A stretch of 64,000 nt of DNA from a virus, in IMG/VR virus record IMGVR_UViG_3300029258_001212, positions 89,541-153,540 of that record. The stretch is one strand, 5' to 3'. This document shows, piece by piece, positions 298-16,635 of the stretch. The notes beneath the pieces were generated by a model. The model was not told the DNA's origin and made no database searches. It saw only the letters and a list, made by a program, of their open reading frames with translations. How positions within the stretch are numbered: the stretch's first letter is position 1; every line of letters begins with the position of its first letter. A program made the position numbers and the translations under genes.

Positions 298-300
298 GCC

Positions 301-969: not shown

Positions 970-982
970 CCTGCCATCGGAG

Positions 983-1051: not shown

Positions 1052-1052
1052 G

Positions 1053-1268: not shown

Positions 1269-1272
1269 GACA

Positions 1273-2037
1273 ATGCGACGATCCATGATGACCCTGGCCT
1301 TCCTGGCCCTCCTCCTGGTGGGCGCCACCCCCTCGAGCTCCCAGCCGGCCGCCCGGCCGGCGCCCCGCGCCACGGCTCCGGCTCCGGCTCCGGCAATGAC
1401 GGTTGCTCCCGCTGCCATGACCGTGCCCGTGCCCGCGATGGCAGCCATGGCGCCCAAGGTGGCCCCCGTGGCTCCAGCGGCGGCAGCTCCGTCCGCCGGC
1501 GCCCCTGTGATGGCCCCAGCGTCCACGAGCGCCCCTGTGGCAGCCATGGGGGCACCCATGGCCACCGAGGCCCCTGTGATGGCTCCAGCGCCAGTCAGTG
1601 CCCAACCAGCGGCCATGGCGGCCCAGGACAAGCCCAAGGTGAGCGGATGGGACAAGGCGGACAAGTGGATCGGGCTGATCGTCAAGATTCTGATCGGGCT
1701 CCTGAGCATCATCGGGGCCATCCTGGGCGTCGTGAAAGGCCAGGACTGGCGTGCCAAGCTCAAGACGGAACGCTGGCAGAAGATCCTCGGGTACGTGGAC
1801 CAGGCATTCCCCGTGGTGGAGTCGCTGGCCAAGGGCACCTCCTGGAAGGGCGACGACAAGCTGGTGGAGCTCCTGAAGCGCGTGAACGATTGGCTCAAGG
1901 GCGAGGGCGCCCAGGGGCTCTCCGCAGAGGAGATGGCCCTGGTGAAGCGGGAAGCGGCCGACAAGGCGGCGAAGCTCAAGACGGACAACGGCGCCGCGGA
2001 CAAGGTGGACGCCAAGGCCGTGACCCGGAACGGGTAA
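1273..2037 (+). CDS. Holin-like (LL-H-type) membrane protein with signal peptide and Pro/Ala/Met linker
   Basis: N-terminal hydrophobic signal, APVMAPA repeats, one TM (IGLIVKILIGLLSIIGAILGVV), then helical 'VVESLAK..GDDKL..LKRVNDWL' domain. Confidence 0.55.
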   Translation: MRRSMMTLAFLALLLVGATPSSSQPAARPAPRATAPAPAPAMTVAPAAMTVPVPAMAAMAPKVAPVAPAAAAPSAGAPVMAPASTSAPVAAMGAPMATEAPVMAPAPVSAQPAAMAAQDKPKVSGWDKADKWIGLIVKILIGLLSIIGAILGVVKGQDWRAKLKTERWQKILGYVDQAFPVVESLAKGTSWKGDDKLVELLKRVNDWLKGEGAQGLSAEEMALVKREAADKAAKLKTDNGAADKVDAKAVTRNG

Positions 2038-2041
2038 CACC

Positions 2042-2344
2042 ATGGCCCGCTTCAAAGCGTGGATCCGAAAGTGGTGGTGGGTCCTGGTGCTGGTGCTGGT
2101 GACAGTGGGCGGACTTGTCCTGTATTTACTCTTACGAAAAAGCCCCAAACCGGCTCCGGCCGAGACCTTCACAGTGAAAGCTCGCAAGGAGATCCTGAAA
2201 GCCGAAACAGACGCCACCATCGAACGCGCCAAAGTGGAAGCCAGGAGCTCCGTGGAGCGAGCCAAGCTCGAAGAGATCGGGAAGGTCGAGGACGATTTTG
2301 CTCGCCGCAAACGGCTGGCCGATTACCTGGACGAGGTGCTGTAG
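2042..2344 (+). CDS. Inner-membrane spanin-like protein
   Basis: Basic N-terminus, single TM, charged coiled-coil; next to holin-like gene. Confidence 0.5.
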   Translation: MARFKAWIRKWWWVLVLVLVTVGGLVLYLLLRKSPKPAPAETFTVKARKEILKAETDATIERAKVEARSSVERAKLEEIGKVEDDFARRKRLADYLDEVL

Positions 2345-2375
2345 CGAGGGGACGCGATGGCAAACGGTAAGCGTC

Positions 2376-2843
2376 ATGAACCAGTGGATCGGTCCGATAG
2401 TGACAGCCGGAGGAGCTCTGCTTTCCGCTATCTTCGCTCTCATCGCCTGGGTAGCTCTGAGGGAGATCCGCCGAAAGGACAAGGAGATAGAGGATCTCCA
2501 GACGGACATGGAGGAGCTCCTCAAAATAGTCGTGATACTGGAGAACTTAGAAAAATCCTGCGAGCGCGAACGGAACGAGAGGAGAACGGTGGAGGAGCAG
2601 CTCTGGAGCAAGATCAACAGGCTGGTGGCGCAGATCTCGGCCCAGGCTACTACCATCTCGGAGCATCAGAGATCGTGTCGGAGCGTCTACATGACCCAGA
2701 CAGAACACGACCGCCTGGAAGCTCTCCGGGACAAGGTGGAGGACGCGAAAGCGATCACGGATGCCCGGCTGGATGCCAAGGTGGAGAATGTGATTCAGAC
2801 CCTGAATTTCCTCCTCCAGCGGAATGGGATGAGCAGGAGATAA
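2376..2843 (+). CDS. Membrane-anchored coiled-coil protein
   Basis: N-terminal TM followed by heptad-rich region. Confidence 0.6.
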   Translation: MNQWIGPIVTAGGALLSAIFALIAWVALREIRRKDKEIEDLQTDMEELLKIVVILENLEKSCERERNERRTVEEQLWSKINRLVAQISAQATTISEHQRSCRSVYMTQTEHDRLEALRDKVEDAKAITDARLDAKVENVIQTLNFLLQRNGMSRR

Positions 2844-2848
2844 CCGGC

Positions 2849-2986
2849 GTGATCGATCTGGCCGAGTCAGTCTCACCGGTGGTGGCAAAGCAGATTCGTC
2901 AAGACCGCGAGACCACCAAGCGGCGCCAGGCGTTCGTGGAGCGCATGGACACGCTCCTGGCGAAACTCCACGCACTCACGGTATGA
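2849..2986 (+). CDS. Small hypothetical protein
   Basis: GTG start after AGGAG; MIDLAESVSPVVAKQIR...; start uncertain. Confidence 0.4.
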   Translation: MIDLAESVSPVVAKQIRQDRETTKRRQAFVERMDTLLAKLHALTV

Positions 2987-2995
2987 TGCGGCCCG

Positions 2996-3412
2996 ATGCG
3001 CCAACGAAACACCGTAGCGTCAACGGCCGGCTCCATCGTCCGCGGCTCCTGCACCGCGGCGGAATCGGTCGGGGATCCGGTCTACCTCACAGGTGACCCC
3101 TCCGGCTACGTGTACCCGGTCGAAAAGGCAGAAGCGTGGGACGAGGACAAGATGCCAGCGTTTGGCATCGTGATCCGAAAGCTGTCCGATACCGTCTGCT
3201 TGGTGCAAACCGATGGAATCCTTCCTCACGGGATCCTGTCCGGCCTTCAGAGGGGCCACGGCTACATGGTGGGGGGCACCGGGGGCCTCGAGGCGGCCCC
3301 GCCAGTGGTTGGCCCCAACGGCTACTCCTGGATCCAATTCATGGGCCGGTCCCTGGGTGACGACCGGTTCCAGGTGCGCCCGGACACCCTTATCACCATC
3401 AGACGTTCCTGA
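2996..3412 (+). CDS. Capsid cement/decoration-like protein (DUF2190-like)
   Basis: GDPVYL..A.A....PAFGIV....V..G....SGL..G..Y.V...GGL pattern. Confidence 0.55.
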   Translation: MRQRNTVASTAGSIVRGSCTAAESVGDPVYLTGDPSGYVYPVEKAEAWDEDKMPAFGIVIRKLSDTVCLVQTDGILPHGILSGLQRGHGYMVGGTGGLEAAPPVVGPNGYSWIQFMGRSLGDDRFQVRPDTLITIRRS

Positions 3413-3417
3413 TAGTG

Positions 3418-3446
3418 TTGTTTCGGTCATGGGTTACGGGTACAAT
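3418..3446 (+). promoter_or_regulatory. Sigma70-like promoter
   Basis: TTGTTT-17 bp-TACAAT in intergenic gap. Confidence 0.5.
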
Positions 3447-3508
3447 GATGCCCGAGATCCAAATCAAGATTCGAATCCCAGCAAAGGGAAACCCGATTGG
3501 AGGCGAAG

Positions 3509-4075
3509 ATGACGACGAAAGCATCGAAATCCACCCGTTCCAAAAAGGCTCCGGCCAAGAAGCGCACCACGAAGCGCAAGGCAGCGGCCAAGAAAAAGGC
3601 CGCCAAGGCCAAGGTGAAGCCCGCGCCCGAGCCCGCGGACAAGGATGAGCCCCATCCGCTCGCTGAGATCACACTCGAGGAGCGTGACTGGCTCATGAGC
3701 AAGTTCATGGTGGAGCGAGTCAGCGGCACCCAGGCGAAGCTCACGGCGGCCAAGCAGCAGCTCGAGATCCTCATGAGGGATCACATCGCTCAAAAGGCTG
3801 CCCAGAAAGCCCAGATCAACACCGCGGAGGCGGAGGTTCGCCAGGCGGACAACGAGATGAAGGTGTTTTTGGGGGAACTCGAGCACAAGCTCGGGATCAA
3901 CCTTCAGAATTACACCTGGCAGTCGGACGGCAAGATCATCTACATGGGTGACCTGGAAGAGATCGGCAATCAACAGCCGTCTCAACAGGCCAGCCAGCCC
4001 AAGAAAACCGAATCACCCGAACCTGGATCTGAGGATGAGGCGGAAGCTGAATTCCTGAACAGTCGGGTGGTCTAA
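3509..4075 (+). CDS. Hypothetical protein with Lys/Ala histone-like N-terminus and coiled coil
   Basis: GGAGG SD; KKAPAKKRTTKRKAAAKKK. Confidence 0.7.
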   Translation: MTTKASKSTRSKKAPAKKRTTKRKAAAKKKAAKAKVKPAPEPADKDEPHPLAEITLEERDWLMSKFMVERVSGTQAKLTAAKQQLEILMRDHIAQKAAQKAQINTAEAEVRQADNEMKVFLGELEHKLGINLQNYTWQSDGKIIYMGDLEEIGNQQPSQQASQPKKTESPEPGSEDEAEAEFLNSRVV

Positions 4076-4102
4076 CCATCTTCTGGACAGGAGCACCGAG
4101 AC

Positions 4103-5503
4103 ATGGCCCAAGTCAGATTTTTCAAGCTGGATCCGAGCAACGGATTCCACGATCAGCACGACCCCACGGCGGACGAGCTCACCCTCGCCGGCATTGTGAT
4201 GAATGGCGACATTGCCATGGGATCGAACGAGGTGACCGGCCTACCGGGGACGCCCAGCGGCGACACGGCGGCGGCCTCGAAAGCCTACGTGGACAGCGTG
4301 GCGGCGGGGCTGGCGTGGAAGGAACCGGCGGCGGTGCTCAAGATCAAGGATGACTCCGACCAGAGCGGAGTGGATCCGACCGCTGGTGCGACCGGCGAGG
4401 CGTGGCTGGTGAACAACTGGTCCACCCAGACGGATGGCGACATTGTGGAGTGGGACGGCTCCCAGTGGAACGTGGTGGTGGCCAACTCCGGCGGCGAGCC
4501 CCCGGACGGCACCCGGGTGGTGGTGATCGACACCGGCGCGGCTGGATCGTTCACCGGCGAAGAGAACAACATCGGCACCTACGATGCTACCGGGAACACC
4601 TGGAGCTTCGATACTGCCACGGACGGCTGGGCGGTGCTGATCAACGGTGAGCTGTCCGTCTACGAGAACAAGGCGTTCGTCTACGATACCAACGCCTGGA
4701 TCCAGTTCTCCGGCGGCAACTTCACGGCCGGCACCGGCCTGGACCTGACCGGCAACGTGCTGTCCGTCAACTTCGGTGACGGTATCACCGAGCTCCCCAC
4801 GGACAGCGTGGGCATCGACCTGGCCACCACGCCGGGCCTCGAGCTCACCGGCGTCTCGCCGGACAAGCAGCTCCGCGTCCTGGTGGACGGTGCCCACGGC
4901 CTGGTGCTCGGTGCCAGCGGCGTGGAGCTCGAGCTGGACGACACCCCGGACACCCTGGACGTGGACGGCGACGGGCTCAAGGTGGTCGGTCTGCCGAGCC
5001 TGTTCAAGATCAACGATGTGGCCGTGTCGGCCAACGTGACGGCGGCCAACCTGAACACCCTCACGGCGGGCCCCACCTCCAACGCGGACTCGCTGCACAC
5101 GCACACCATCTCCGCCGTGGCCAGCGCCAAAAAGGTGCTCGACACCCACCTCAACAACGCAGCCGTCACCAGCGGCCGAGCAGTCCGCTGGAGTGCGGTC
5201 AACAACGAGATCCAGCACGCGGACAACGCGCCCATCGCCACCCCGGCCAATTCCCGGGCCATCGGCGTGGCCCAGACGGGTGGCGCAGCCAACCCCGGCA
5301 CCAGCGACGTGGTGAAGCATGGGATCTGCACCGGGTGCTTGAGCGGCGCCACGGTCAACACGCCCTACTTCCTGGGCACGGCCGGCGCCCTGGTGACCTT
5401 CGGCAGCATCCCCACCCCGGGCCGCGTGGTCCGCATGGGCTTCGCTGCCAACGGGTCCGACCTGGACGTGCAGGTGACGGACCTGGGCACCAAGCGCGTA
5501 TAG
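4103..5503 (+). CDS. Virion structural/fibre protein (DUF2793-like domain and C-terminal cement-like domain)
   Basis: SD AGGAG; 'DTAAASKAYVD' fibre motif, WDGSQW, TAGTGL repeats; strongly biased codon use. Confidence 0.75.
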   Translation: MAQVRFFKLDPSNGFHDQHDPTADELTLAGIVMNGDIAMGSNEVTGLPGTPSGDTAAASKAYVDSVAAGLAWKEPAAVLKIKDDSDQSGVDPTAGATGEAWLVNNWSTQTDGDIVEWDGSQWNVVVANSGGEPPDGTRVVVIDTGAAGSFTGEENNIGTYDATGNTWSFDTATDGWAVLINGELSVYENKAFVYDTNAWIQFSGGNFTAGTGLDLTGNVLSVNFGDGITELPTDSVGIDLATTPGLELTGVSPDKQLRVLVDGAHGLVLGASGVELELDDTPDTLDVDGDGLKVVGLPSLFKINDVAVSANVTAANLNTLTAGPTSNADSLHTHTISAVASAKKVLDTHLNNAAVTSGRAVRWSAVNNEIQHADNAPIATPANSRAIGVAQTGGAANPGTSDVVKHGICTGCLSGATVNTPYFLGTAGALVTFGSIPTPGRVVRMGFAANGSDLDVQVTDLGTKRV

Positions 5504-5561
5504 CGCAACCTGGAGCCGGGCAGCGATAGGGCTGCCCGGCCCTCCAGATTGGAGGCCGCAG

Positions 5562-6116
5562 ATGGGCACTGATGGCGATGCGGTACTCCCTGTAAAGTGG
5601 GAAAGTCCTAGCAGCGGAGGCACCGAGACCGACTACACCCCCGGGGAGGTGAACCCCTGGGAAGATGTGCTCGCTGCCCGCGGAATCTATCCCCAGCGAC
5701 CATCCCCTGATTCCACCATCCGCAAGACGGTCAAGCTATCCCAGGACGGCGCGGACCGGATGACCTTCGAGGACGCGGAGAACACTACACCTCTGACTCT
5801 CACTGATTTGGCCACAGGTGGGGGTGGACTCACGCCGGCAACGCATCGTGTACTGGATCAACTCGTCCACGATGTGGCAGAGGACTACTACCTGGAAAAC
5901 ACGTGGAGCGGTGCCCGGCTCACGAATATGACGTACTGGACGGATGCTACCAAGACGGTCAGGGTCCGCGAGCACCAATACACGTACACGGGCAGTCGGG
6001 TGACCCAAGAGGTGATCATTCAGTATGATGGGAGTGGTGTCGCTGTGGAGACGTTGACGATCACGAACACCTGGAGCGGCGGCAAGCTGGCCAGCCAGAC
6101 GGCGGTGCTTACATGA
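5562..6116 (+). CDS. Virion-associated hypothetical protein
   Basis: GGAGG SD; YD-like beta hairpins (YTYTGSRVT, NTWSG). Confidence 0.65.
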   Translation: MGTDGDAVLPVKWESPSSGGTETDYTPGEVNPWEDVLAARGIYPQRPSPDSTIRKTVKLSQDGADRMTFEDAENTTPLTLTDLATGGGGLTPATHRVLDQLVHDVAEDYYLENTWSGARLTNMTYWTDATKTVRVREHQYTYTGSRVTQEVIIQYDGSGVAVETLTITNTWSGGKLASQTAVLT

Positions 6117-7192
6117 GCGGAGCAACGATTGTCGTCATTGACGAAAGCAGCCCCCGGAACATCCTGGGGACCTACGAGTGGGACAGGAGCGGCGGCGGAG
6201 TGCTGATTGCCCCGGCCGTGAGCGCCCTACCCAGCCCCGCAGAGCCCGGGGAGATCGTCTGGCTAAAGACCGACAACAAGCTGTACCGTCGAAACGACTT
6301 GGACACGGCTTGGGATGCACTGGAGTCGGCTGTCGCATTGCACGGAAGCACCCATGAGGAAGGGGGTGCCGACGAAATCAACGTGGCCGGGCTCTCCGGT
6401 GTCCTGGCCGACGACCAGCCTGCCCAAACTCACGCCCTTGGCGGCTCGAAGCACAGCGCAGACACCTTGGCCAACCTGAACAGCAAGGTGTCTGACGCCA
6501 CCCTGGACGACGCAAGTGACCCACGCGACCCGAACGCACATGCGGTAACCCATGAGAACGGCGGCTCTGATGAAATCAACGTCGCCGGGTTGTCCGGGAC
6601 ACTGGCCGACCCGCAGACACCATCGGGCCACGGCTCGACCCACCAGGATGGCGGCTCGGATGAAATCAGCGTGGCCGGCCTGTCCGGTGTGCTCGCAGAC
6701 GGACAGGACGCAGCACAGATCCAAGGCCGGGATGTGGCAGCCACGGCACCATCGGCAGACCAGGTGCTCGCGTGGAGCGGCAGTCAGTGGGAGCCAGCGG
6801 ACCAGCAGGGCGGCGTGTTCGGCACGGAGTTGGATTACGCCAACGATGACACGGTATCGCAGACCACCAGCACGTCATGGCAGCAGAAGCTACGGCTGTC
6901 GGTGACGGGCCTGCCTGCTGGGACATACCGGATCGCGTTCTACTACAACTGGCAGTACAGCGTGGCATTCCGTGACTTCCAGGGGCGTGTGCAACTGGAC
7001 GACACCACGAACTTGTTCCTGCATCAGCAGGAGCCGAAGGATCCGGGCACCGATCAGGTCTACGTCGAGTCTGGGTTCATCCATGTGGCGCTGAACGGCG
7101 ACCACGACATTGACATTGACTACCGCGCATCGCAGGCCGGCGATACGGCCTACATCGCGTTTGCTCGGTTGGAAATCTGGAGAGTCAGCTAA
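6113..7192 (+). CDS. Tail fibre-like protein with His-containing repeats
   Basis: Three HxxTHxxGGxDEIxVAGLSG repeats; C-terminal beta-sandwich. Confidence 0.7.
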   Translation: MSGATIVVIDESSPRNILGTYEWDRSGGGVLIAPAVSALPSPAEPGEIVWLKTDNKLYRRNDLDTAWDALESAVALHGSTHEEGGADEINVAGLSGVLADDQPAQTHALGGSKHSADTLANLNSKVSDATLDDASDPRDPNAHAVTHENGGSDEINVAGLSGTLADPQTPSGHGSTHQDGGSDEISVAGLSGVLADGQDAAQIQGRDVAATAPSADQVLAWSGSQWEPADQQGGVFGTELDYANDDTVSQTTSTSWQQKLRLSVTGLPAGTYRIAFYYNWQYSVAFRDFQGRVQLDDTTNLFLHQQEPKDPGTDQVYVESGFIHVALNGDHDIDIDYRASQAGDTAYIAFARLEIWRVS

Positions 7193-8217
7193 TGGCGGAG
7201 ACCAAGTACAGCTACAGCGTCAGCGAAGACTTCCCGAACGGGAAGGTTGCGCCCGACCGGCTCACCCAGGAGATTCAGGCGAGCACCATCACGGTCGCCT
7301 TGGACTGCATCAACGTCAACGGTGACAACTGCGACGTTTGGTTCAAAGCAGAGCTTTCGGCCGGAGAGCATACGACGCTGGATGGCGTGGTGGCGGCCCA
7401 CAGCGGTGAGCCGATCCCGAATCCAACGGCGCAACTCGACTCACAGAACCGCACAGTCACAGTGAAGGAGCCACAGCACGATGGAGAGGCGCGTCTGATC
7501 GTGACGCACCTGTGGACCGACCCATGTACCTGGTATGGGGACAGCGAGCGGGTGGAAGGTGGAGATCTCACCGACTCCGGCGATGGGCTCACGTTCACCA
7601 GTGGCAAGGAGCATTGGATTGACCTGACACACGGGCGCGTGTTCCGTGAGGACCGTGTGAGCGCACCATATCTGGTCAAGGTCTACGTGGATGGCGTGGA
7701 GAAAGCCGAGCGTCCACCGTTCAAGGACGAGGGGGGCGACTACACGATCAACTACGAAGACGGCACCGTGACGTTCGCGGAGTCGCAGGCAGGCAAGACG
7801 ATCACGGCCGACTACAGCTACGAAAACGGTTCTACGTTCTACATGCAGCCGAACGAAGGCAAGAAGCTATGGATCGAGAAGTCGGAAGCGCAGTTCACCA
7901 CCGACATTACGATGAACGATACCTTCCAGTACCAGCCGGCCGTGATCGGCGGCCCCACGGTTGGGCTTGGCCACATCTACAAGAAGTGGTTTGACTTGGT
8001 TCAGGAGGCAAACGGGGTGTATCCGATCACGCCAGCACTAGGCGGAGCAAAGCGGGGCCTGGAGCACGACGTGGTGAACATCCCATTCGACTTTGGCCCG
8101 GTGCGGGAGTTGATCGATGGGCAGGGCATCGAGATCCGCATTTGGCTGGAGGAGCACAACGCCTTCGATGGTGAGGTGGTATCGGTCACATTCTACTGCA
8201 TGGAATACGACAAGTGA
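7192..8217 (+). CDS. Virion structural protein
   Basis: Coupled start; 'KVYVDGV...DYTINYEDGTVTF' tail-associated motif. Confidence 0.7.
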   Translation: MAETKYSYSVSEDFPNGKVAPDRLTQEIQASTITVALDCINVNGDNCDVWFKAELSAGEHTTLDGVVAAHSGEPIPNPTAQLDSQNRTVTVKEPQHDGEARLIVTHLWTDPCTWYGDSERVEGGDLTDSGDGLTFTSGKEHWIDLTHGRVFREDRVSAPYLVKVYVDGVEKAERPPFKDEGGDYTINYEDGTVTFAESQAGKTITADYSYENGSTFYMQPNEGKKLWIEKSEAQFTTDITMNDTFQYQPAVIGGPTVGLGHIYKKWFDLVQEANGVYPITPALGGAKRGLEHDVVNIPFDFGPVRELIDGQGIEIRIWLEEHNAFDGEVVSVTFYCMEYDK

Positions 8218-8267
8218 TTTTACCCGGGGCAACCGACTGGTTGCTCGACGCTCTATGGAGGCTTCTC

Positions 8268-8873
8268 ATGAGCACCAGCTACGATTACAGCATCAGCGGC
8301 GACTTCCCGAACGGGCAAGTGAACCCGTCCGTTTTGTACGCAGAGATCAACGCCGAATCAGCTATCACGGTCCCATTGGAGGCGATCAACGTAAACGGCG
8401 ACGTGTGCAGTGTCGTCTTCGAGGGTCCGTTGTCCCCCACAGAAAAAACCGCACTGGACGACCTGGTTGCCAATCACACTGGTGAGGAAACCACGAGCGA
8501 TGTGCAGTACGCCTATTCGGAAAACGAGCAGGGCACCACCGGGCAGACCTGGATGGAGAAGCTGGAGCTTCAGTCCGACCCGCTGGGTGGCGGCGAGTAC
8601 CTGGTGACGTGGTACTGCGAGATCAAGCTCCTAAGCGGCACCCCGAACACGGGTGCCTTTGCCCAGTTCACCCTGAACGGCACAGAGCGCGGCGCCGACG
8701 TGAATGACCTGAATCAGTGGAAGGCGTTCAGTGGTTCGGCCATCGCCCCGTTCCCCGCCGGTGGTGAGCCGGTGCTGGCCATCAACTGGCGCCGCTTAGG
8801 TGGCTCTGATGAGGCCCTCATCAGGCGGGCGCGCTTGTCCATCAGTCCAGTCGAGAAAGGGAATGGCGAATAG
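8268..8873 (+). CDS. Virion protein, chimera of domains of the two preceding genes
   Basis: GGAGG SD; N-terminus like 7192 gene, C-terminus like 6113 gene. Confidence 0.7.
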   Translation: MSTSYDYSISGDFPNGQVNPSVLYAEINAESAITVPLEAINVNGDVCSVVFEGPLSPTEKTALDDLVANHTGEETTSDVQYAYSENEQGTTGQTWMEKLELQSDPLGGGEYLVTWYCEIKLLSGTPNTGAFAQFTLNGTERGADVNDLNQWKAFSGSAIAPFPAGGEPVLAINWRRLGGSDEALIRRARLSISPVEKGNGE

Positions 8874-8945
8874 GACACCCTCTTGACTCTTATTCCCCTA
8901 CAAGGGGAGATAAGGTTAATTAAGAAGAAGCAATGAGCGTGCCAA
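8874..8945. promoter_or_regulatory. Dispersed 72-bp element, copy 2
   Basis: TTGACT(8883)-22 bp dyad-TAAGGT(8911)-TAATTAAG; reverse complement of 8929-8945 is TTGGCACGCTCATTGCT. Confidence 0.85.
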
Positions 8946-9472
8946 TCTCGGAAGACCAACGGACCTGGGTGATCTTGAGCACCACCGAGACCTTCCTGGG
9001 AAGGGCCATCAGGTGGTTCACACGCGCGCCAAGGGGCGCGAGCCATGCCTCGGTGAGCTACTACTCCGGCAAGCTGGGCCAGCGCCTGGTACTCGAGGCC
9101 AGCGCCTACGGATACCGGGTACTCCCTTGGGCGAAGTGGAAGAACATGGACCCCGGCAAGCGCGTGTGGGTGTACGCGGAGGCGCGCATCAGTCTCCTGA
9201 AGGGGCTCCAGCACGTGGCGGCCGAGCTCGGGCGCCCCTACGATTACAAGCTGATGCTCTGGCACGCCCTTCGGTTCTGGTTCAAGCGATGGCTCAAGAA
9301 GCCGTGGCGCAACCCAAGGCGGTGGGCGTGCCAGGAGGCGACAATCATCATGCTCCAGGCGTCTGGCGTGGGTGGATCTTTCCGCGTTGACCCCGAGGCC
9401 ACAACACCTGAGCAGCTCCGCGTGTGGCTGTCCGGCTGCCCGGAGCTCGAGCAGATTGAGGTGCCCCTGTGA
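8933..9472 (+). CDS. Permuted papain-like NlpC/P60 (YiiX/YebB-like) enzyme
   Basis: IRWFT..ASHASV (His first), VLEA, LGRPYDY, WACQE (Cys last), TPEQL. Confidence 0.7.
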   Translation: MSVPISEDQRTWVILSTTETFLGRAIRWFTRAPRGASHASVSYYSGKLGQRLVLEASAYGYRVLPWAKWKNMDPGKRVWVYAEARISLLKGLQHVAAELGRPYDYKLMLWHALRFWFKRWLKKPWRNPRRWACQEATIIMLQASGVGGSFRVDPEATTPEQLRVWLSGCPELEQIEVPL

Positions 9473-10476
9473 CTTCCACCGTGATTCTCCTGGCGATGAT
9501 CGGCACCATGTGGGGCATCATCGCCGGCTACCGCGCCTACTTCAATCGGCGCAAGCGGCGCCAGGTGGCCACGAACTCTGGCCGAGAGACCCAGGAGCTC
9601 CAGGCCATGGTGGACGCCTTCAAGGGTTCTCATGCAGTCTCCAGGGGCTGGATGATGGGCCTGATGGCAGCCGGCGTAGCTGTGGCAACGGCTCTGGGGG
9701 CGCTGTTCATCAGCCTGATGGCTGGTGAGCCGGGTGGCTCCACCAAGACGATGCCACAGCGTGCTTCTGGGATGAGCGCCGCCATGAACGCCATGCGGCC
9801 AGAGGCCATGGACGCCATGCGGCCACCAGAGCGGCGACACCGGCGCCGGATGCAGGTGGTGATCGTGATCACCGATGACGGGGTGGAACCCATCGACAAC
9901 CCCATGGACCGCTGTGAGCCAGGCAAGGTGGTTCACGTCACCAAGGACGGCGTGAAGTGCCTCAAGCTCGGGTCCAAGGAGGCGAGAGCGGTGCTCGAGG
10001 AAGGCAACAAGCCGATCACGGACGTTGTGAAGCTCCGCGAGGACGTGATGCGCGTTGCCCCCATGCGGCCCCAGGTGATGCGCCAAGGTTTCGCGCCAGG
10101 CGTTGGGAACGTGGGCAAGGACGTAGCGAAGCGTAAGGGCAAGGGCGTCTGGCAGAAGTACGCGGAGATTGTCTATTTCCTCACCACGTTCCTCGGGGTG
10201 GTGCTCAGATTCATCTGGGATCACAACCTCGAGCGCCGCCGGTGCCAGGCGGCCGGACTCGCCACAGAGCGGTTCAACTTCATGAACCTGGTGGTGGGCT
10301 TTTTCATCGGCGTGGCCGTTCATCTTCTCATGTCCAAGGCCATGGGCGTGGGCTATGAAACGGCCACCTTTCAAAACGTGCTCCTCGCATCGTACAATGG
10401 GTTCCTGTGGCCGAGCATTCTCAAGGACGTGAGCGAGTTCCGCGGGTTGCGGAAGTCCGATGGCGCGGTGGCATGA
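9469..10476 (+). CDS. Multi-pass membrane protein
   Basis: Two N-terminal and about three C-terminal hydrophobic segments; AMxAMRP repeat. Confidence 0.65.
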   Translation: MTSTVILLAMIGTMWGIIAGYRAYFNRRKRRQVATNSGRETQELQAMVDAFKGSHAVSRGWMMGLMAAGVAVATALGALFISLMAGEPGGSTKTMPQRASGMSAAMNAMRPEAMDAMRPPERRHRRRMQVVIVITDDGVEPIDNPMDRCEPGKVVHVTKDGVKCLKLGSKEARAVLEEGNKPITDVVKLREDVMRVAPMRPQVMRQGFAPGVGNVGKDVAKRKGKGVWQKYAEIVYFLTTFLGVVLRFIWDHNLERRRCQAAGLATERFNFMNLVVGFFIGVAVHLLMSKAMGVGYETATFQNVLLASYNGFLWPSILKDVSEFRGLRKSDGAVA

Positions 10477-10479
10477 ACC

Positions 10480-11040
10480 ATGAGCAGAGAGCTACCTGTC
10501 AACGTAGGAGTCATTGACCAGTTCCCCGTCTGGGAACCGGACGGCTCCGGGCAGAAGCACAGCGGGCTCACCATCGGGGACTTCGCCGTCACCATCTTCC
10601 ACGATGGGGTGGAGCAGACCGGCTACGTCTACGGGATCGCGGAGATCGATAACCTGGGCGAGTACCGAATCTCCTGGACGCCCAACGCCACCGGCTTCTG
10701 GTTGGTGGAGGTGCTCATCGACTACAACCTTCAGGTCTGGTACGAGGAGTACGATGTGGTGGACGCCTCGCAGAGCGAGATCTACCAGATGGTGGCTCGC
10801 GCCCTGGGCCTGGTCCACGAAAACATCTTCATCGACACCACCAGCTACGATGCGGATGGTCAGCTTGTAGCGGCCCGCGTGCGCCTCTTCGAGTCCAAGG
10901 CAGACGTGGAGCTCGCCACCGATGGCGGCCAGCCCCCGCCGGCCGGCACGGACCCAGAGCACCTGGCGGAGTACACCATCGGGATCACCTGGGAAGGCAC
11001 CAACCGGTACAAGGTGTTCAAACAGGTGCTCGAGCCATGA
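10480..11040 (+). CDS. Virion-associated hypothetical protein (Ig-like N-terminus)
   Basis: EIDNLGEYRISWTP..G.W beta-sandwich pattern. Confidence 0.65.
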   Translation: MSRELPVNVGVIDQFPVWEPDGSGQKHSGLTIGDFAVTIFHDGVEQTGYVYGIAEIDNLGEYRISWTPNATGFWLVEVLIDYNLQVWYEEYDVVDASQSEIYQMVARALGLVHENIFIDTTSYDADGQLVAARVRLFESKADVELATDGGQPPPAGTDPEHLAEYTIGITWEGTNRYKVFKQVLEP

Positions 11041-11348
11041 TCGCCTTCATCGCCCAGACCGGTCTACTCGAGCTCCTCGCCGTGTGCGTGGTAGTCGGGA
11101 TTTCCCTGTCCACCCTCGGGAAGATTTGGCCCCAGGCGGCCATCACCAGGGAGCAGTTCACGGAGCTCGACACGGACGTGGAGGGGGTGAGCGAGCTCCA
11201 GGTGGAAATGGTGGAGGTGGAGCCGGAGACCATGCAGGTGCAGCTCGAGGACATTGGCGAGATCACCGTGGAGGTGGAAGTGCTCGACACCGAGACCGGC
11301 GTGGTGGTGAAGGACTCTGGTATTACCGTGAAAATGGAGTGTGACTGA
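11037..11348 (+). CDS. Acidic hypothetical protein
   Basis: ATGA overlap; V/E alternating beta repeats. Confidence 0.6.
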   Translation: MIAFIAQTGLLELLAVCVVVGISLSTLGKIWPQAAITREQFTELDTDVEGVSELQVEMVEVEPETMQVQLEDIGEITVEVEVLDTETGVVVKDSGITVKMECD

Positions 11349-11761
11349 TGGCTGACTCCCCGTTCTTCCAGCCCGATTGCGTGTGCTCGGATGTGATCAA
11401 CCTCTACAAGAACCGGGATCGCACCATCCGGTTCACCATCACCAATGACGATGTGGGTGATATTACGGGCGCCTTGATCTGGTTCTCTGTGAAAAAAGAG
11501 GTGACCGACACCGACAGCGAGGCGGTGATCACCAAGAAGTCCGCTGGCATCACTGGTGGCGACGATTCCCAAGCCAAGGTGGTGGACGGCGTGGCCAGGA
11601 TCATCGAAGTCTACATCCTGCCAGCGGACACCGTGGACCTGGACGCTGGCGGCTACGTGTCGGACGCAGTGATCCAGCTCCCCACCGGGCGGAAGCTCCA
11701 GCTCAAGGACCCCTTCCGGTTCAACGTCCAGCAACCGGCCACCCTCGCGGAGACCCCATGA
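11348..11761 (+). CDS. BppU-like baseplate upper/adaptor domain protein
   Basis: DITGALIWFSVK...I.PADT..L..G.YVSD pattern. Confidence 0.55.
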   Translation: MADSPFFQPDCVCSDVINLYKNRDRTIRFTITNDDVGDITGALIWFSVKKEVTDTDSEAVITKKSAGITGGDDSQAKVVDGVARIIEVYILPADTVDLDAGGYVSDAVIQLPTGRKLQLKDPFRFNVQQPATLAETP

Positions 11762-12180
11762 GCCAGATCCTCACCGAAGCGGAGCTTGAGCTCGCCCTGG
11801 CGGCCCAACAGGCCCAGCTAGAGGCCAAGGTGGCCCTCGCGGACCATGAGGTGGCCTACCAGGGCACCAAGGCCGAGCTAGTGGACCGGGTGAAGGCTAC
11901 TACTGAGGCGCGCCAGCACGCCCTGGCGGCCATCCTACAGGCCCGTGGGCTTGACCCCCGCGAGTGGACGATCAACGTCGCTACGCAGGAGGTGGAGCCC
12001 GCTGGGGCGCCGTCCACGGGGCTCCTGGGTGGCCTGGGCGAGGTGCTACTGGAACAGGGCCAGGATCGGCCCTTTCGACCCCTGAGCTCCGAGGAGGAGC
12101 TCGAGCGCGGGCGCGGTGGCGCGGTGGCAGCGGTGCGCCTCACGCGACCTGGAAACGGAGGCCACGATGACAGGGACTGA
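11758..12180 (+). CDS. Hypothetical protein (coiled coil, possible fibre chaperone)
   Basis: ATGA overlap, helical. Confidence 0.6.
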   Translation: MSQILTEAELELALAAQQAQLEAKVALADHEVAYQGTKAELVDRVKATTEARQHALAAILQARGLDPREWTINVATQEVEPAGAPSTGLLGGLGEVLLEQGQDRPFRPLSSEEELERGRGGAVAAVRLTRPGNGGHDDRD

Positions 12181-12670
12181 ACGGCGCGGGATCGCCTTGA
12201 TCCTGGTGACCACGATGCTCACGATGGCCACCTTGGCGTGCGCCCCCCAGGTGCAGACGGCCAAGCGGGCGCCCATCTTCGAGAAAGCCCAGGAGCTATC
12301 CAAGCTCCCGGCCCGGGTGGAGAAGCCGGCCAAAAAGACCGGCACGGTGGTGGCTGTCCGCAAGGGTGACCAGGTGCCCTTCGATGGCATCCTACTCACC
12401 GAGGACCGGGCGAAAAAAGCGGCCCAGCTCCGAATTTCCTACGATGAGCTGTACGATATTGCGACGATCAACCGGCGCTTCACCGGTGTGGCTCTCCGGG
12501 CGGCAGATGAGCAGCTCGCGGCGGCCGACAAGGAGATCGCCAGGCTTCGCAAGGCCCAGGACTCCTGGTGGAACCGGCACAAGCTCACTGTGGGCATCGT
12601 GATCGGCACCATCCTCACGCTCGGACTCGGGGGCCTCGCGGTGTGGGGCGCCAGCGAGCTCAAGAAGTAG
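12167..12670 (+). CDS. Lipoprotein with C-terminal TM (spanin-like)
   Basis: GGAGG SD; lipobox TLAC; coiled coil; C-terminal TM VGIVIGTILTLGLGGLAVW. Confidence 0.65.
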   Translation: MTGTERRGIALILVTTMLTMATLACAPQVQTAKRAPIFEKAQELSKLPARVEKPAKKTGTVVAVRKGDQVPFDGILLTEDRAKKAAQLRISYDELYDIATINRRFTGVALRAADEQLAAADKEIARLRKAQDSWWNRHKLTVGIVIGTILTLGLGGLAVWGASELKK

Positions 12671-12700
12671 CAGCCTTTCCCTTACTTTCCCTTATCCCTC

Positions 12701-12730
12701 TTGTGTCGGGTGCCCTGGTAGGGTAATTGT
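12701..12730 (+). promoter_or_regulatory. Possible sigma70-like promoter for the structured leader
   Basis: TTGTGT-17 bp-TAATTG(T); shares GGTAGGGTA with promoter at 40219. Confidence 0.35.
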
Positions 12731-12954
12731 AGAAGCTCGGGTGGTAGCGGCTGCCCGACAGCGGACGCGGGGGCGGTTCCTGCGATGCCTCGGTGGTCAG
12801 TTCGGTTGCCATGGCCCTCCCCCATCCCCGCGCCCAAGCCGCGAGGTGGCTCGCTCCCCTGTGATGGCTGCAAGGCTGGGCCGGAGGGCAGCTCGAGAAA
12901 CCGGCCCCGGCGGAGGCATTGAATCCGCCGCTTTTCGCCCAGGAGGAGACGGTG

Positions 12955-12983
12955 TTGACAGTCAGATCTGGCCAAAGTACCCT
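12955..12983 (+). promoter_or_regulatory. Sigma70 promoter internal to leader
   Basis: TTGACA-17 bp-TACCCT. Confidence 0.5.
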
Positions 12984-13016
12984 GTCCGCAAAGCTGTGTT
13001 TCGTCACGGCTCCCTC

Positions 13017-13065
13017 GGACTGGTCGGGCAGCCCCCCAACACCCCCCCTGGCCAGTCCTTTTTTT
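13017..13065 (+). terminator. Intrinsic terminator (long loop)
   Basis: GGACTGGTCGGG/CCTGGCCAGTCC 12-bp stem followed by T7. Confidence 0.6.
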
Positions 13066-13092
13066 GTCCAGCGACACGATTGGAGGTACGTG

Positions 13093-13839
13093 ATGGGTCG
13101 CTCTGCGATTGAGTGGACGGACTACTCATGGAGCCCTGTGACCGGGTGTTCGATGGTCTCCACGGGGTGCCGTAACTGCTACGCGAAACGGATGGCCGAG
13201 CAGTTCCAGCGGGACGGCAAGGCGCGCTACAGGTACGGGTTCAAGCCGACGATCCACCCGGATGTGCTCGAGGAGCCGCTGGGGTGGAAAACGAGTCGGC
13301 TCATCTTCGTGTGCAGCATGAGCGATCTGTTCCACGAGGACGTTCCTTTCGAGTTCTTGGAGCGCGTGTTCGCCATCATGCGGCGGACCCCGCGGCACAC
13401 CTACCAGGTGCTCACGAAGCGAGCGGAGCGGATGCGCGAGCTCGGCAACAAGATCGGCTGGCCGAGCAACATCTGGGCTGGCGTGACCGTGGAGCATCCC
13501 CGGTACGTGAAGCGGCGCATCCCCGAGCTCCTTGACACCGAGGCGCGGCTCCGATTCGTCTCCTTTGAGCCCCTGGTGGCCGAAATCGGCCCGTTCGATT
13601 TCACGGGCATCGACTGGGTGATCGTGGGTGGTGAACGGGGGAGCCGGGTGCGCCCCATGGACGAGGCATGGGCCCTGGACCTACTACGCCAGGCCCGCGC
13701 GGCCGGCGTGCCGTTCTTTTTCAAGCAACGCGGCGATGCGGCTGGGATCATGGGCTACCGGGACCAGCTCCTCGGGGGCAAGAAAATCCAGGAGCTCCCC
13801 GAGCAAGCTGGCAACCAACCCAGCCTGTTTGACCTGTGA
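13093..13839 (+). CDS. DUF5131 / phage Gp37-Gp68 family radical-SAM-like protein
   Basis: SAIEWTD.SWSPVTGC..VS.GC.NCYA, FVCSMSDLFH, LTKR, SFEPL, WVIVGGE, FFFKQ. Confidence 0.92.
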   Translation: MGRSAIEWTDYSWSPVTGCSMVSTGCRNCYAKRMAEQFQRDGKARYRYGFKPTIHPDVLEEPLGWKTSRLIFVCSMSDLFHEDVPFEFLERVFAIMRRTPRHTYQVLTKRAERMRELGNKIGWPSNIWAGVTVEHPRYVKRRIPELLDTEARLRFVSFEPLVAEIGPFDFTGIDWVIVGGERGSRVRPMDEAWALDLLRQARAAGVPFFFKQRGDAAGIMGYRDQLLGGKKIQELPEQAGNQPSLFDL

Positions 13840-13939
13840 GCCCTTTGTCTGCTACGTTGACGGGTGCGCGCCTGGAGGGGCGCTGGAAGGCTTGCCAGGC
13901 TCTCCGGTCTCCTCTGCGAGAAGCTCCCCGGCCAGGCAT

Positions 13940-13978
13940 GAATCCCCGTCTGCAATAGCAGCGGGGATTCGACTTTTT
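13940..13978 (+). terminator. Hairpin (terminator-like) just before the MTase SD
   Basis: GAATCCCCG(T)CTGC-AATA-GCAG-CGGGGATTC then GACTTTTT. Confidence 0.45.
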
Positions 13979-13988
13979 GGAGGCCACG

Positions 13989-14702
13989 ATGATTGAACGA
14001 TTGGAATCCTCCCCCCTCTGGTGCGCGTGGGACGTGGTGTGCTGTGACGCTGTGACGTTCCTCCGCCAGCTCCCGGACGCCTCGGTGGACCTGGCGATCA
14101 CGGACCCGCCCTACGAGTCCCTTGAGAAGCATCGCAAGAAAGGCACCACCACGCGCCTGAAGGTGTCCAAGGCGAGCTCCAACGCCTGGTTCAAGACGTT
14201 CCCCAACGCGCGGTTCCCAGAGCTCCTGGCAGAGCTCAGGCGCGTCCTGAAGCGCGACCGGCACTGCTACATCTTCGTGGACCAGGAGACCATGTTCGCC
14301 TTGCGCCCCGTGGCAGAGGCAGCCGGGTTCAAGTGGTGGAAGGCGCTGGTGTGGGACAAGGTGGCCATCGGGATGGGCTACCACTACCGGGCCCGCTTCG
14401 AGCACATCGCCTTCCTCGAGCTGGGCAGGCGCAAGCTCAACGATCTGGGCGTACCAGACGTTCTCCAGGTCAAGCGCGTCTGGCGGGGCATCCCCGCGGA
14501 GAAGCCCGTGGAGCTGATGGAGGTGCTGGTCCGACAGAGCACCAGGCCCGGTGAGCTGGTGGTGGACCCCTTCCTGGGCTCCGGGGCCTCGGGTCAGGCA
14601 GCCGTGAAGCTCGGGCGCCGGTTCCTTGGATCTGACCTGAATCCAGAATTAGTGCAAGAATCCACAGATCGGATTTGCGGCGCTTCTGCCATCCCCATGT
14701 AG
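13989..14702 (+). CDS. DNA N6-adenine/N4-cytosine methyltransferase (beta class)
   Basis: DPPY catalytic motif before P.EKP and VVDPFLGSG SAM-binding motif. Confidence 0.92.
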   Translation: MIERLESSPLWCAWDVVCCDAVTFLRQLPDASVDLAITDPPYESLEKHRKKGTTTRLKVSKASSNAWFKTFPNARFPELLAELRRVLKRDRHCYIFVDQETMFALRPVAEAAGFKWWKALVWDKVAIGMGYHYRARFEHIAFLELGRRKLNDLGVPDVLQVKRVWRGIPAEKPVELMEVLVRQSTRPGELVVDPFLGSGASGQAAVKLGRRFLGSDLNPELVQESTDRICGASAIPM

Positions 14703-14737
14703 TGTGCCTGGCGGACTGAAACCACTACATCTGGTAG
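14690..14737. promoter_or_regulatory. Possible tandem NrdR boxes
   Basis: CCACTACATCTGGTAG (14722) fits acaCwAtATaTwGtgt; weaker CATCCCCATGTAGTGT starts 32 bp upstream. Confidence 0.4.
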
Positions 14738-14754
14738 TCGGTTTTTGACCATCT

Positions 14755-14842
14755 GGAAGTTTTCTTCTACATGGTCAGGAAGTTTTCTTCTACATGGTCA
14801 GGAAGTTTTCTTCTACATGGTCAGGAAGTTTTCTTCCTGACC
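14755..14842. repeat. Iteron-like array (3 x 23 bp) ending in a palindrome; putative replication origin
   Basis: GGAAGTTTTCTTCTACATGGTCA at 14755, 14778 and 14801; GGTCAGGAAG-TTTT-CTTCCTGACC at 14819-14842; AT-rich flank. Confidence 0.85.
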
Positions 14843-15056
14843 TATATGGAAGTATATGCAGAGAAAAAGATGCAGAGAAGCAGAGCGGGGCTGGGCGCCC
14901 CGGCTGCCAGGTGCTCCGATGACAGCTCTCTGACGGCGGCTCACCTGGCACGAAAATTGACCACCGAGTTTTGGACTGAAAGAAGTTGACCGGCCGTTTC
15001 GCCCCGTGATATGCCTGGACTCCTGGCAAGCCTTTCTGACTCACGAGGAGAACCAA

Positions 15057-16466
15057 ATGGCGAAGATCGAGCTGACGTTAAAGCGGACATACCGCCCCCA
15101 CTGGGGGGTTCCGGAGGCAGTCCGGGAGTTCCTTCAAAATTGGTTGGACGGGGGAGACAAGGGGTTCACGAAGTCCATGCGCCGGGACGGCGACTGGTTG
15201 GTGCTCCGCAACGAAGAGGTGGTGCTTCCGCGTGAGGCGCTCCTCCTCGGGTTCACCACGAAGGCGACGGACGCGGATTCACGCGGCCAGTGGGGCGAGG
15301 GGCTCGACATGGGGCTCCTGGTGGCCACCCGGTCCGGGCTGGACGTGGTGGTCTACACGGGCGCGGAGCGGTGGGCCCCGAAGCTGGTCCAGAGCGCATC
15401 GTTCGCAGACGAGGTGCTCGCGGTGTTCACGCGCCAGGTGCGGGACCGCGCCGGCACGGAAGTCCACCTGCGGATCTCTGAGGAGGAATGGGCCGAGCTC
15501 CAGTGGCGCTTCCTCGAGCTCCAGCCGGCGGAGGAGACCACCCCGGGCAGCAGAGGCCAGATCATCTTCGATGCGGACAGGCGCGGGTGCGTGTACGTCA
15601 AGGGGATCTTCGTGTCCAAGATGGATGACCTACAGCACGGCTATGATTTCGAGCACGCGCATGTGGACCTGGATCGGATGCTGGTCAGTGGCTTCGATGT
15701 GCGCTGGGAGGCGGCCATGCTGTGGGAGACCGCCATCAGCCGGTCGCCCAGTCGCAACGGGCGCGCCGCGTGGGAAATGCTCAAGTCCGAGAAGCCGGAC
15801 GTGGCCGGCCTCGGAAGTCGCCTACAGCGCAACCCCAACCCCCAGGTGGCCAGGGCCGTGGCGGAGGTGTTTAAGGCGGAGCATGGCGCGGACGCTCTCC
15901 CGGCAGCCGACGACCACCAGATGCAGAAGATCGAACATCTAGGTCGCAAGCCCGTGCGGGTGTCCAGGTCCGCGGCAGATGTGCTCGAGGCCCATTACGG
16001 TCAGTTCCACGTGATGCTCAACAAGGTGGCCAAGGCGGAAAAGGTGGCGGTGGCCACGGCCGAGCTCACCGAGCTCGAGCGCCAGGTGGTGTTCCGAGGG
16101 GTGCGCCTGGTGGAGCTCGCCATGGACGGACTCAAGTGGAGCCGGGGCTACCAGGAGCTCCTCGCCGGGCTGGACGTGGTGGAGTACGCAGACGATCAGA
16201 TACTGGGTACGTGGGAGCGCGAATCGCGCCGCATTGGTGTGTCGCGCCGTGTGCTCAATGATGTGCCAGAGTTCCTGGGGACCTACCTCCACGAGCTGGC
16301 CCACGATTTGACCGAAGCTGTGGACGGCACCCGCATTCACATCAGCGTGGCTGAGTACCTGTGGGTGCGCTGCATGAGGGTGGTGCTGGAACGCTTCGGG
16401 ATGGAGTGGCTGGATGAGCGTGCAGACGATGGGGCCGAAGTGCGGGATCTGCGACAAGGCGGTTAG
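15057..16466 (+). CDS. GHKL-type ATPase fused to HExxH zincin-like domain
   Basis: EAVREFLQNWLD, G.TTK...RGQWGEGL (GHKL motifs); YLHELAH near C-terminus. Confidence 0.75.
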   Translation: MAKIELTLKRTYRPHWGVPEAVREFLQNWLDGGDKGFTKSMRRDGDWLVLRNEEVVLPREALLLGFTTKATDADSRGQWGEGLDMGLLVATRSGLDVVVYTGAERWAPKLVQSASFADEVLAVFTRQVRDRAGTEVHLRISEEEWAELQWRFLELQPAEETTPGSRGQIIFDADRRGCVYVKGIFVSKMDDLQHGYDFEHAHVDLDRMLVSGFDVRWEAAMLWETAISRSPSRNGRAAWEMLKSEKPDVAGLGSRLQRNPNPQVARAVAEVFKAEHGADALPAADDHQMQKIEHLGRKPVRVSRSAADVLEAHYGQFHVMLNKVAKAEKVAVATAELTELERQVVFRGVRLVELAMDGLKWSRGYQELLAGLDVVEYADDQILGTWERESRRIGVSRRVLNDVPEFLGTYLHELAHDLTEAVDGTRIHISVAEYLWVRCMRVVLERFGMEWLDERADDGAEVRDLRQGG

Positions 16467-16635
16467 CATGGACAACTGCGTGGAGGTGATCGTGATCGCC
16501 CACCGTGGCCGGTCCGAGACTCCGCTCGGTTCGATGTACTACCACATGGAATGCTACCTGGACGAGCAAGATGGCGAAGCAACGCAAGCCCAGAAAGAAG
16601 CCCGGGAAGCCCGCGCGAAAAGCGGCCCCAGGTAA
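16414..16635 (+). CDS. Small Zn-finger protein
   Basis: CGIC...HMEC. Confidence 0.55.
   Translation: MSVQTMGPKCGICDKAVSMDNCVEVIVIAHRGRSETPLGSMYYHMECYLDEQDGEATQAQKEAREARAKSGPR

Follow-up and report, generated by a model that had tools for sequence, protein, structure and literature searches.

The question addressed here is what an element of about 72 bp, repeated at gene junctions of a large phage genome, is for and in which direction it is read. It was found in a 64,000-nucleotide stretch of viral DNA, hereafter the window, which corresponds to bases 89,541–153,540, i.e. the final 64 kb, of the 153,540-bp IMG/VR record IMGVR_UViG_3300029258_001212 (64% GC, 144-bp end overlap). An initial annotation had described the element as two promoters placed face to face, a sigma-54 site at one end and a MerR-style sigma-70 promoter at the other, and had proposed that the two form a mutually exclusive switch. 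Our comparisons give good support to the assignment of one end as a sigma-54 −24/−12 site under selection, including in those copies where it faces against the genes. With confidence slightly better than even, we propose that the element is a lineage-specific, recombining cassette in which a sigma-54 promoter would be joined to a leader hairpin and a ribosome-binding site.

Copies and anatomy of the cassette

The five copies reported for the window are real. They align over about 72 bp, and each lies between a stop codon and the next start (Table 1). A scan of the complete record extended the family to 12 copies of about 72 bp each, which form the sole dispersed repeat in the 153.5-kb genome, in agreement with the earlier suggestion of a portable, genome-wide cassette. 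Every one of the 12 is placed between a stop codon and the following start, and in nine the upstream stop is 0–14 nt from the cassette edge. The exact pattern TGGCAC-N5-TTGC occurs five times in the window, always inside a cassette, versus a chance expectation of about 0.1 (estimated with 4^10 over both strands, 128 kb in total). The 19-mer GGAGATAAGGTTAATTAAG, with up to three mismatches, has four matches in the window and 0.00 in shuffled sequences. The N5 spacers of the window copies are ACCTG, GCTCA (twice), AGACG and GGGTG, and the annotated variation of the spacer within a constant core is thereby confirmed.

Genes were called with a codon model trained on long open reading frames in which the GC content of first codon positions exceeds that of second positions (GC1 > GC2); third-position GC content alone is blind to strand in a GC-rich genome, which is why the model was trained. 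It returned 218 genes, which cover 91% of the genome and lie without exception on the plus strand. Relative to these genes the sigma-54 box runs in the same direction in four cassettes and in the opposite direction in eight, a split that fits chance (two-sided binomial p ~0.39, our own calculation). Four of the five window copies are antisense, as had been noted, all nearby genes being on the plus strand.

In the sigma-54 direction the consensus of the cassette is TTGGCACG-N4-TTGCTTCT(G/T)CTTAATTAACCTTATCTC-(loop and variable arm)-AAGAGTC(AA/TT)GAGGGT. For copy 2, transcription is predicted to start near position 8918 on the minus strand, from the usual distance of 12 nt. When the C of TTGC is taken as −12, the start would fall within the octamer TTAATTAA, which genome-wide is found only inside cassettes, in 10 of the 12; the initial annotation had correctly placed this AT-rich stretch in copies 2, 3 and 5. 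The stem-loop would begin 2–4 nt into the predicted sigma-54 RNA.

Each of the four sense copies stands before a gene block: one of small genes (genome 1104 on), one for the head (portal, protease, capsid), one for the tail (sheath, tube, tape measure) and the terminase block. Copy 5 stands at the head of the last of these, which includes a 687-amino acid (aa) probable large terminase (51456–53519). At two sense copies a GAGGG is located 6–7 nt ahead of the ATG (genome 1104 and 139424), and the genes downstream of the remaining two have their own Shine-Dalgarno (SD) sequence. The box points at a gene with an SD and a start codon in four of the 12 copies and does not in the other eight. In two antisense copies an SD followed by ATGG is still present, opening frames of 2 and 11 codons, and these two thus look like an inverted sense cassette.

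Table 1. Positions of the cassettes, the parts of copy 2 and a rejected candidate activator gene (window positions unless stated otherwise)
Feature	Position	Strand	Remarks
Antisense cassettes, box positions	genome 28969, 49656, 74058, 81897, 90575, 98469, 117190, 125847	−	box on minus strand
Sense cassettes, box positions	genome 1032, 38368, 53362, 139350	+	box on plus strand
Copy 1	979–1051	− (antisense)	variant with AAGACT and TAGGGT, without TTAATTAA; vestigial SD and ATG, 11-codon minus-strand frame
Copy 2	8873–8945	− (antisense)	flanked by stop TAG 8871–8873 and start ATG 8933–8935
Copy 2, sigma-54 −24/−12 box TTGGCAC-GCTCA-TTGCT	8929–8945	−	exact match at 8930–8944; GG 8942–8943, GC 8930–8931
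Copy 2, AT-rich palindrome TTAATTAA	8916–8923		over the predicted start
Copy 2, imperfect hairpin CTTATTCCCCT-ACA-AGGGGAGATAAG	8889–8914		about −12.5 kcal/mol on either strand; one arm invariant, the other varies but pairs
Copy 2, ribosome-binding-like end GAGTCAAGAGGGT (minus-strand reading)	8877–8888	−	plus strand holds the "−35" TTGACT at 8883–8888
Copy 3	27594–27666	− (antisense)	between RecA gene (stop 27594–27596) and Holliday-junction-resolvase-like gene (TTG start 27668)
Copy 4	36251–36323	− (antisense)	upstream of ParB-like gene 36357–37250
Copy 5	49809–49881	+ (gene direction)	GAGGGT, 7 nt, then ATG 49884
ChlI-like AAA+ protein	L012:14608–15519 (genome 32608–33519)		PF00158 match

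Conservation of the sigma-54 box

A sister genome, IMGVR_UViG_3300028920_000034 (153,114 bp), has a capsid protein 99% identical to that of the present phage, and the flanks share 88–97% DNA identity. All 12 cassettes are found in it at the same places and in the same orientations, and the 12 of each genome make up the 24 copies to which the counts below refer. The GG-N10-GC arrangement is present in all 24. TGGCA, TGCTTCT, ACC-TATCT and AAGA-TC--GAG-GT are essentially fixed, whereas the N5 spacer occurs in at least nine variants. Departures within the box are confined to three copies and leave GG and GC untouched: TTGGCAT in copy 1032, CTGGCAC in the sister of copy 125847, and GTGC for TTGC in the sister of copy 49656. 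The published sigma-54 consensus is TGGCAC-N5-TTGCT (PMC12316311), and the flanking consensus positions of the cassettes match as well, with T before TGGCAC, G after it in most copies, and TTGCT.

The more divergent contig L175 from the Joint Genome Institute was found via the neighbouring proteins; its RecA has 76.5% amino acid identity to that of the phage, and third codon positions are 62% identical. A cassette in the same antisense orientation is located at its RecA/resolvase junction, the place of copy 3. TTGGCACG and TTGCT are identical there at 13 of 13 positions, with GG-N10-GC intact, and the remainder of the cassette is about 60% identical. A hairpin of different sequence is kept (−12.5 kcal/mol on the sense strand versus −10.5 on the other), and TTAATTAA, TTGACT (replaced by GGAACT), TAAGGT (replaced by TAAGAG) and GAGGGT are lost. 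Since the whole box and a hairpin persist in an antisense copy that has otherwise drifted, these two are the parts that selection keeps, and the suggestion that the −24/−12 bases are under selection is strengthened. In a further relative, L172, the contig ends within a cassette at the same junction.

The hairpin

Folded one by one, all 24 copies form a stem of 7–11 bp, from 13 distinct sequences. One arm, CCTTATCTC, never changes, and the other differs between copies but keeps its pairing, which argues against a symmetric protein operator. We relied on the folds of single copies, because RNAalifold, applied to a 23-copy alignment of copies that differ by small indels, missed the local hairpin; it proposed instead an invariant ACCUU/AGGGU helix with no covariation. 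In the eight sense copies the hairpin is about equally stable on both strands (about −10.9 kcal/mol on the mRNA-sense strand and −11.4 on the other), and in the 16 antisense copies the corresponding values are about −11.2 and −8.3 kcal/mol.

The energies of the hairpin range from −6 to −17 kcal/mol. Read forward, its tail GUUAAUUAA contains four U among eight bases, and read the opposite way it contains none. The hairpin is not listed by our terminator scan, and in view of the tail without a U-run it is not a canonical intrinsic terminator. No Rfam family was matched anywhere in the window. Short terminated antisense RNAs were considered and rejected; a terminator-like structure lies within 100 nt downstream of only two of the eight antisense copies.

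A proposed sigma-54 promoter with leader and ribosome site

Read from the box onward, the cassette would provide a consensus sigma-54 (RpoN) −24/−12 promoter, an AT-rich start region, a stem-loop, and the purine-rich GAGGGT as a ribosome-binding site. The four sense cassettes would most likely be host-sigma-54-dependent late promoters with a stabilising leader. The eight antisense cassettes are the same cassette, inserted inversely into operon junctions. Selection has kept their boxes, so sigma-54 RNA polymerase probably binds there too, and they may send antisense transcripts into the upstream gene from its 3' end or serve a use that is independent of orientation.

Several observations weigh against this proposal. 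Among bacterial sigma factors, sigma-54 alone depends on an ATP-driven activator to start transcription, and a Pfam sweep of 199 phage proteins shows no enhancer-binding protein with GAFTGA, nor is there a shared upstream motif within 260 bp of the boxes. An ordinary promoter does not account for a cassette that faces against every gene in eight of 12 copies, and the role of these eight is not explained by the proposal. In the antisense copies, folding favours the mRNA-sense strand over the predicted sigma-54 transcript by 2.9 kcal/mol, which hints that the hairpin may work in the sense mRNA at every junction, and not in an antisense RNA. As to the host, one weak holin match of the phage is to an "actinobacterial" family, and the GC-rich Actinomycetota almost all lack rpoN (PMC12316311).

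The Pfam sweeps of the same 199 proteins also returned no sigma factor or RNA polymerase family, and neither a Sigma70_r4 match nor a relative of T4 gp55 was found. Lacking a phage activator, a phage sigma factor and an upstream motif, the system would have to depend on a host activator without a conserved site or on a phage factor that was not recognised, or the polymerase would bind without firing. The sole PF00158 match was rejected as a phage activator; it is a 303-aa ChlI/Mg-chelatase-like AAA+ protein with a degenerate Walker A motif (GQPGSGR, no lysine) and no GAFTGA. Identification of the host failed. A capsid relative occurs in a metagenome-assembled genome (MAG) labelled Ignavibacteriaceae, on a contig without the cassette, and the ESM Atlas gave only a weak lead to Pseudomonadota.

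A bolder form of the proposal, which we consider speculative and rather doubtful, is that the antisense sigma-54 sites are a working part of the programme of this phage, and perhaps of other large uncultured phages. Sigma-54 would be switched on by a host stress activator or by an unrecognised phage protein that acts independently of enhancers. Four cassettes would then drive the late blocks, and the eight inverted ones would fire into the ends of upstream operons, where read-through might be trimmed or silenced by antisense RNA or by polymerase collision. Alternatively, the sites may sequester host sigma-54 polymerase. Either version, if true, would be a use of sigma-54 that has been described for no virus.

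Alternative explanations

The strand preference of the hairpin raises the alternative that the cassette is an orientation-independent mRNA element. Its hairpin would act in the sense RNA as a 3'-end protector, processing site or leaky terminator, similar to REP elements or to the promoter-early stem-loops (PeSLs) of T4-type phages, and the sigma-54 box would be a passenger or a separate feature. A sense-strand hairpin of about −11 kcal/mol at 24 of 24 loci in either orientation is consistent with this explanation, as is the relaxation of the other strand to about −8 kcal/mol in antisense copies, with a like difference in L175. The hairpin is also the sole part besides the box that survives in L175, the upstream stop codons lie close by in nine of 12 copies, and the chance-like 8:4 split is compatible with indifference to orientation. 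Furthermore, phage phiKZ has terminators in which a comparable C-rich/G-rich stem is followed by a short TTAT tail (PMC10914365). However, the best-conserved part of the cassette, the sigma-54 box, would be left unexplained. The tail falls below the rule of the terminator scan, Rfam offers no match, and the hairpin variants share ancestry, so that few independent events stand behind the strand bias. We regard this explanation as unlikely.

It is less probable still that the cassettes are decoys or barriers that hold host sigma-54 polymerase, draining the stress operons of the host or separating phage operons, in which case orientation would be irrelevant. The conservation of the boxes in both orientations would agree with this, as would the failure to find an activator gene or enhancer in the phage, and twelve sites per genome would presumably multiply with replication. 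In E. coli, the sigma-54 holoenzyme is stably bound but inactive at most of its sites and can repress overlapping promoters, but the same data oppose repression by a roadblock of bound sigma-54 (PMC4591121). The initial annotation had suggested that the antisense sites act as a host-sigma roadblock or as a source of antisense RNA; that these sites matter remains tenable in view of their conservation, whereas the roadblock version is disfavoured by the E. coli data (PMC4591121). Moreover, a decoy would need neither the hairpin nor the SD nor an exact placement before start codons, and the sense copies look like complete expression cassettes.

We give little credence to the idea that the box is read by a phage factor, such as the tandem winged helix-turn-helix (wHTH) protein described below, a ParB/KorB-like protein or an unrecognised phage sigma factor, and that its likeness to an RpoN site is a coincidence. 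Most of the 218 phage proteins are without a family match, and the phage does encode DNA-binding proteins. Against this stand the 13 consensus positions, the exact GG-N10-GC and the free spacer, which together are the signature of sigma-54 contact. By our estimate, a match of this kind would arise by chance in one 72-bp element with a probability below 1e-4, and the searches for Sigma70_r4 and gp55 mentioned above were negative.

The proposed opposing MerR-style promoter

The sequences cited for the second promoter of the initial annotation, TTGACT-N21/22-TAAGGT, with AAGACT and TAGGGT in copy 1, are present as claimed. The model built on them holds that a MerR-type activator fires a long-spacer sigma-70 promoter toward the genes and that sigma-54 polymerase on the opposite strand excludes it; we consider it the least probable of the explanations examined. 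Across the 24 copies the "−35" is TTGACT in just 13, AAGACT in 10, where two key T's have become AA, and TTGATT in one. The "−10" is TAAGGT in 22 and TAGGGT in two, so that the TAnnnT pattern of TA(A/G)GGT is kept in all 24, although TAAGGT agrees with TATAAT at only three of six positions. Sixteen copies have a spacer of 21 bp between the hexamers and eight have one of 22 bp, its length varying with that of the loop. MerR-type promoters have spacers of 19–20 bp, and a spacer that is longer and variable between copies does not fit a mechanism that needs precise untwisting. One arm of the dyad is free to vary, and both hexamers are gone in L175, where the sigma-54 box is intact. A scan for consensus sigma-70 promoters and intrinsic terminators found no enrichment over shuffled sequences (window 1–20000). 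With no credible opposing promoter, the mutually exclusive switch is without a basis.

The model does have some points in its favour. The window copies do contain the hexamers and the dyad, repression of overlapping promoters by sigma-54 is reported from E. coli (PMC4591121), and the gene behind a forward-oriented copy needs some source of transcription, several start codons being located 2–5 bases past the cassette. In addition, the phage encodes a protein with two MerR-type wHTH domains. This 267-aa protein (window 25302–26102), the only MerR-like gene product, has a basic N-terminal helix and two tandem MerR-type wHTH domains at about residues 57–121 and 162–224, each followed by a helix of about 20 residues; there is no long coiled coil. 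It scores 24.3 bits with Pfam MerR_1, its AlphaFold model has a predicted local distance difference test score of 79.7, and Foldseek returned weak matches (E >= 0.08), all of them to MerR-family DNA-binding domains. As modelled, the protein could be a single-chain pseudo-dimer, and it is only a possible DNA-binding partner of the cassette. It lacks the long dimerising helix, its gene is in the replication module and adjoins no cassette, and only five homologues were found among 5.8 billion proteins. L173 encodes a 38% identical homologue, and no cassette is seen in the 20.8-kb syntenic region of that relative.

In several of the forward-oriented copies, those with the sigma-54 box on the minus strand, the cassette ends 2–5 bases ahead of a start codon with no SD between; such starts are found at window 27668 (TTG), at L175:2320 (ATG) and at genome positions 81918, 90593 and 74078. 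For the resolvase-like gene, the position of the start after the cassette is kept in a 70%-identical relative.

Other identities were rejected. A T4-type late promoter, read by a gp55-like sigma factor from TTAATTAA in both directions, is not supported; no gp55 relative or Sigma70_r4 match was found, TTAATTAA is missing from two of the 12 copies and from L175, and there is no TATAAATA. An N4-type hairpin promoter would go with a giant virion RNA polymerase, and the phage has none. The GTG of GTGCCAA is not a shared start codon, the frame stopping after 3–4 codons in several copies. GANTC, the CcrM site, occurs in the cassette as GAGTC and in one copy as GAATC; it is not enriched, with 459 occurrences per strand versus about 500 expected.

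Origin, spread and recombination

Neither the exact sigma-54 box nor a dispersed repeat was found in the relatives G001, L177 and L173, in fragments with 53–72% capsid identity, or in a 125-kb MAG contig with 70% capsid identity. G001 (159 kb) has 48–52% marker identity to the present phage and is syntenic for 44 proteins. In G001 and L177 the genes at the syntenic junctions follow one another simply as stop, SD and start. The cassette is accordingly a gain of the lineage that comprises this phage, its sister genome, L175 and L172. The cassette pattern had no match in 185,579 bacterial genomes and matched the sister genome alone in IMG/VR, where a looser pattern of the box gave single hits at about the number expected by chance and no look-alike cassette. 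A metagenome scan with RecA added a single informative relative (48% identity), which is without the cassette.

Cassette copies recombine with one another. At 98469, 49656 and 117190, whole hairpin blocks differ between the orthologous copies of the two sister genomes, and each block is identical to the blocks of other copies. Indels between the sister genomes abut cassettes at two of the 12 loci, 430 bp to the left of copy 125847 (window copy 4) and 258 bp at copy 49656. The 430-bp indel (window 35823–36252) holds a gene for a 114-aa protein that is absent at that place in the sister genome. Its homologue in G001 lies elsewhere (148249–148566), and it looks like a mobile small gene beside the cassette.

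Comparison with known systems

The use of sigma-54 is known from very few phages. The sigma-54 promoters of Pseudomonas phage YuA were reportedly described by Ceyssens et al. in 2008 and have since been re-mapped (PMC10914365). Like YuA, the present phage is without its own RNA polymerase, and host sigma-54-dependent promoters are located in the structural or late region (PMC10914365); here they are predicted. YuA has a few single, experimentally verified promoters in a 58-kb siphovirus, whereas we have 12 near-identical predicted cassettes, with hairpin and SD and in both orientations, in a 153-kb myovirus. The PeSLs are small composite cassettes of promoter and stem-loop repeated between genes of T4-like phages (PMC2839356, PMC4122927). 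Indels and exchanges between close relatives occur at them, comparable to the 430-bp and 258-bp indels and the swapped hairpin blocks seen here. They differ in that PeSLs are sigma-70 early promoters of hyperplastic regions of small early genes and run with the genes, whereas the present cassette has a sigma-54 box, also separates core modules and occurs in both orientations. In view of YuA (PMC10914365) and the PeSLs (PMC2839356, PMC4122927), the statement of the initial annotation that no such system was recognised from described phages was too strong.

Bacterial sigma-54 promoters such as glnAp2 and pspA resemble the cassette in GG-N10-GC, the full extended consensus, the variable spacer and the AT-rich start (PMC12316311). 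In contrast to them, the cassette has no enhancer or activator that could be found, faces away from genes in two thirds of cases and is a dispersed 72-bp viral repeat. The intragenic and antisense sigma-54 sites of E. coli are likewise conserved without being promoters of adjacent genes, some of them antisense, with inactive binding (PMC4591121); for the cassettes, binding is predicted. The E. coli sites are single, mostly weak and intragenic, whereas the phage boxes are of consensus strength, lie between genes and belong to a repeated cassette. MerR-activated promoters (such as merT, copA and zntA) share with the cassette two hexamers and an over-long spacer that holds a dyad. They differ in spacer length (19–20 versus 21–22 bp), and the cassette has an unconserved −35, one variable dyad arm and no canonical MerR regulator.

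A sigma-54 cassette at twelve junctions, without a recognisable activator and with antisense boxes under selection, raises the questions of who activates it and what the backward copies are for. Answers could point to a new means of timing late genes, of using antisense transcription or of coupling the phage cycle to host stress. The cassette is also a compact, naturally portable unit of promoter, leader and ribosome site, as predicted, and it exemplifies how a regulatory element spreads and recombines inside one phage genome.

Genome context

By PHROG and Pfam the phage is a T4-like myovirus with portal, prohead protease, gp23-type capsid, sheath, tape measure, gp19 tube, gp25 and baseplate proteins. 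Other genes assigned in this way encode DnaB, primase, a RecA/UvsX-like protein, SNF2 and other helicases, ParB, methylases and a single-stranded DNA-binding protein. The largest protein is the 1669-aa tape measure. The best capsid identity to cultured phages is only about 30%, a DNA-level search of known phages gave no match, and no tRNA genes were found in the genome.

A stretch of 1.3 kb (window 44613–45934) is without a called gene, has 53% GC and no notable repeats, and the surrounding region (44000–46500) has six terminator-like hairpins versus 1.5 expected in shuffled sequences. After the cassette at 74058, the ATG that follows directly opens 13 codons and then a TGA, and the region L015:2075–2498 (genome 74075–74498) is 70% GC, rich in proline codons and without a confident reading frame. 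The distance between terminase and portal is about 2 kb in G001 (1132–3020) versus about 50 kb in the present phage, where the interval (genome 143060–153540, on to 41091) contains small genes, putative head-cargo genes and three cassettes.

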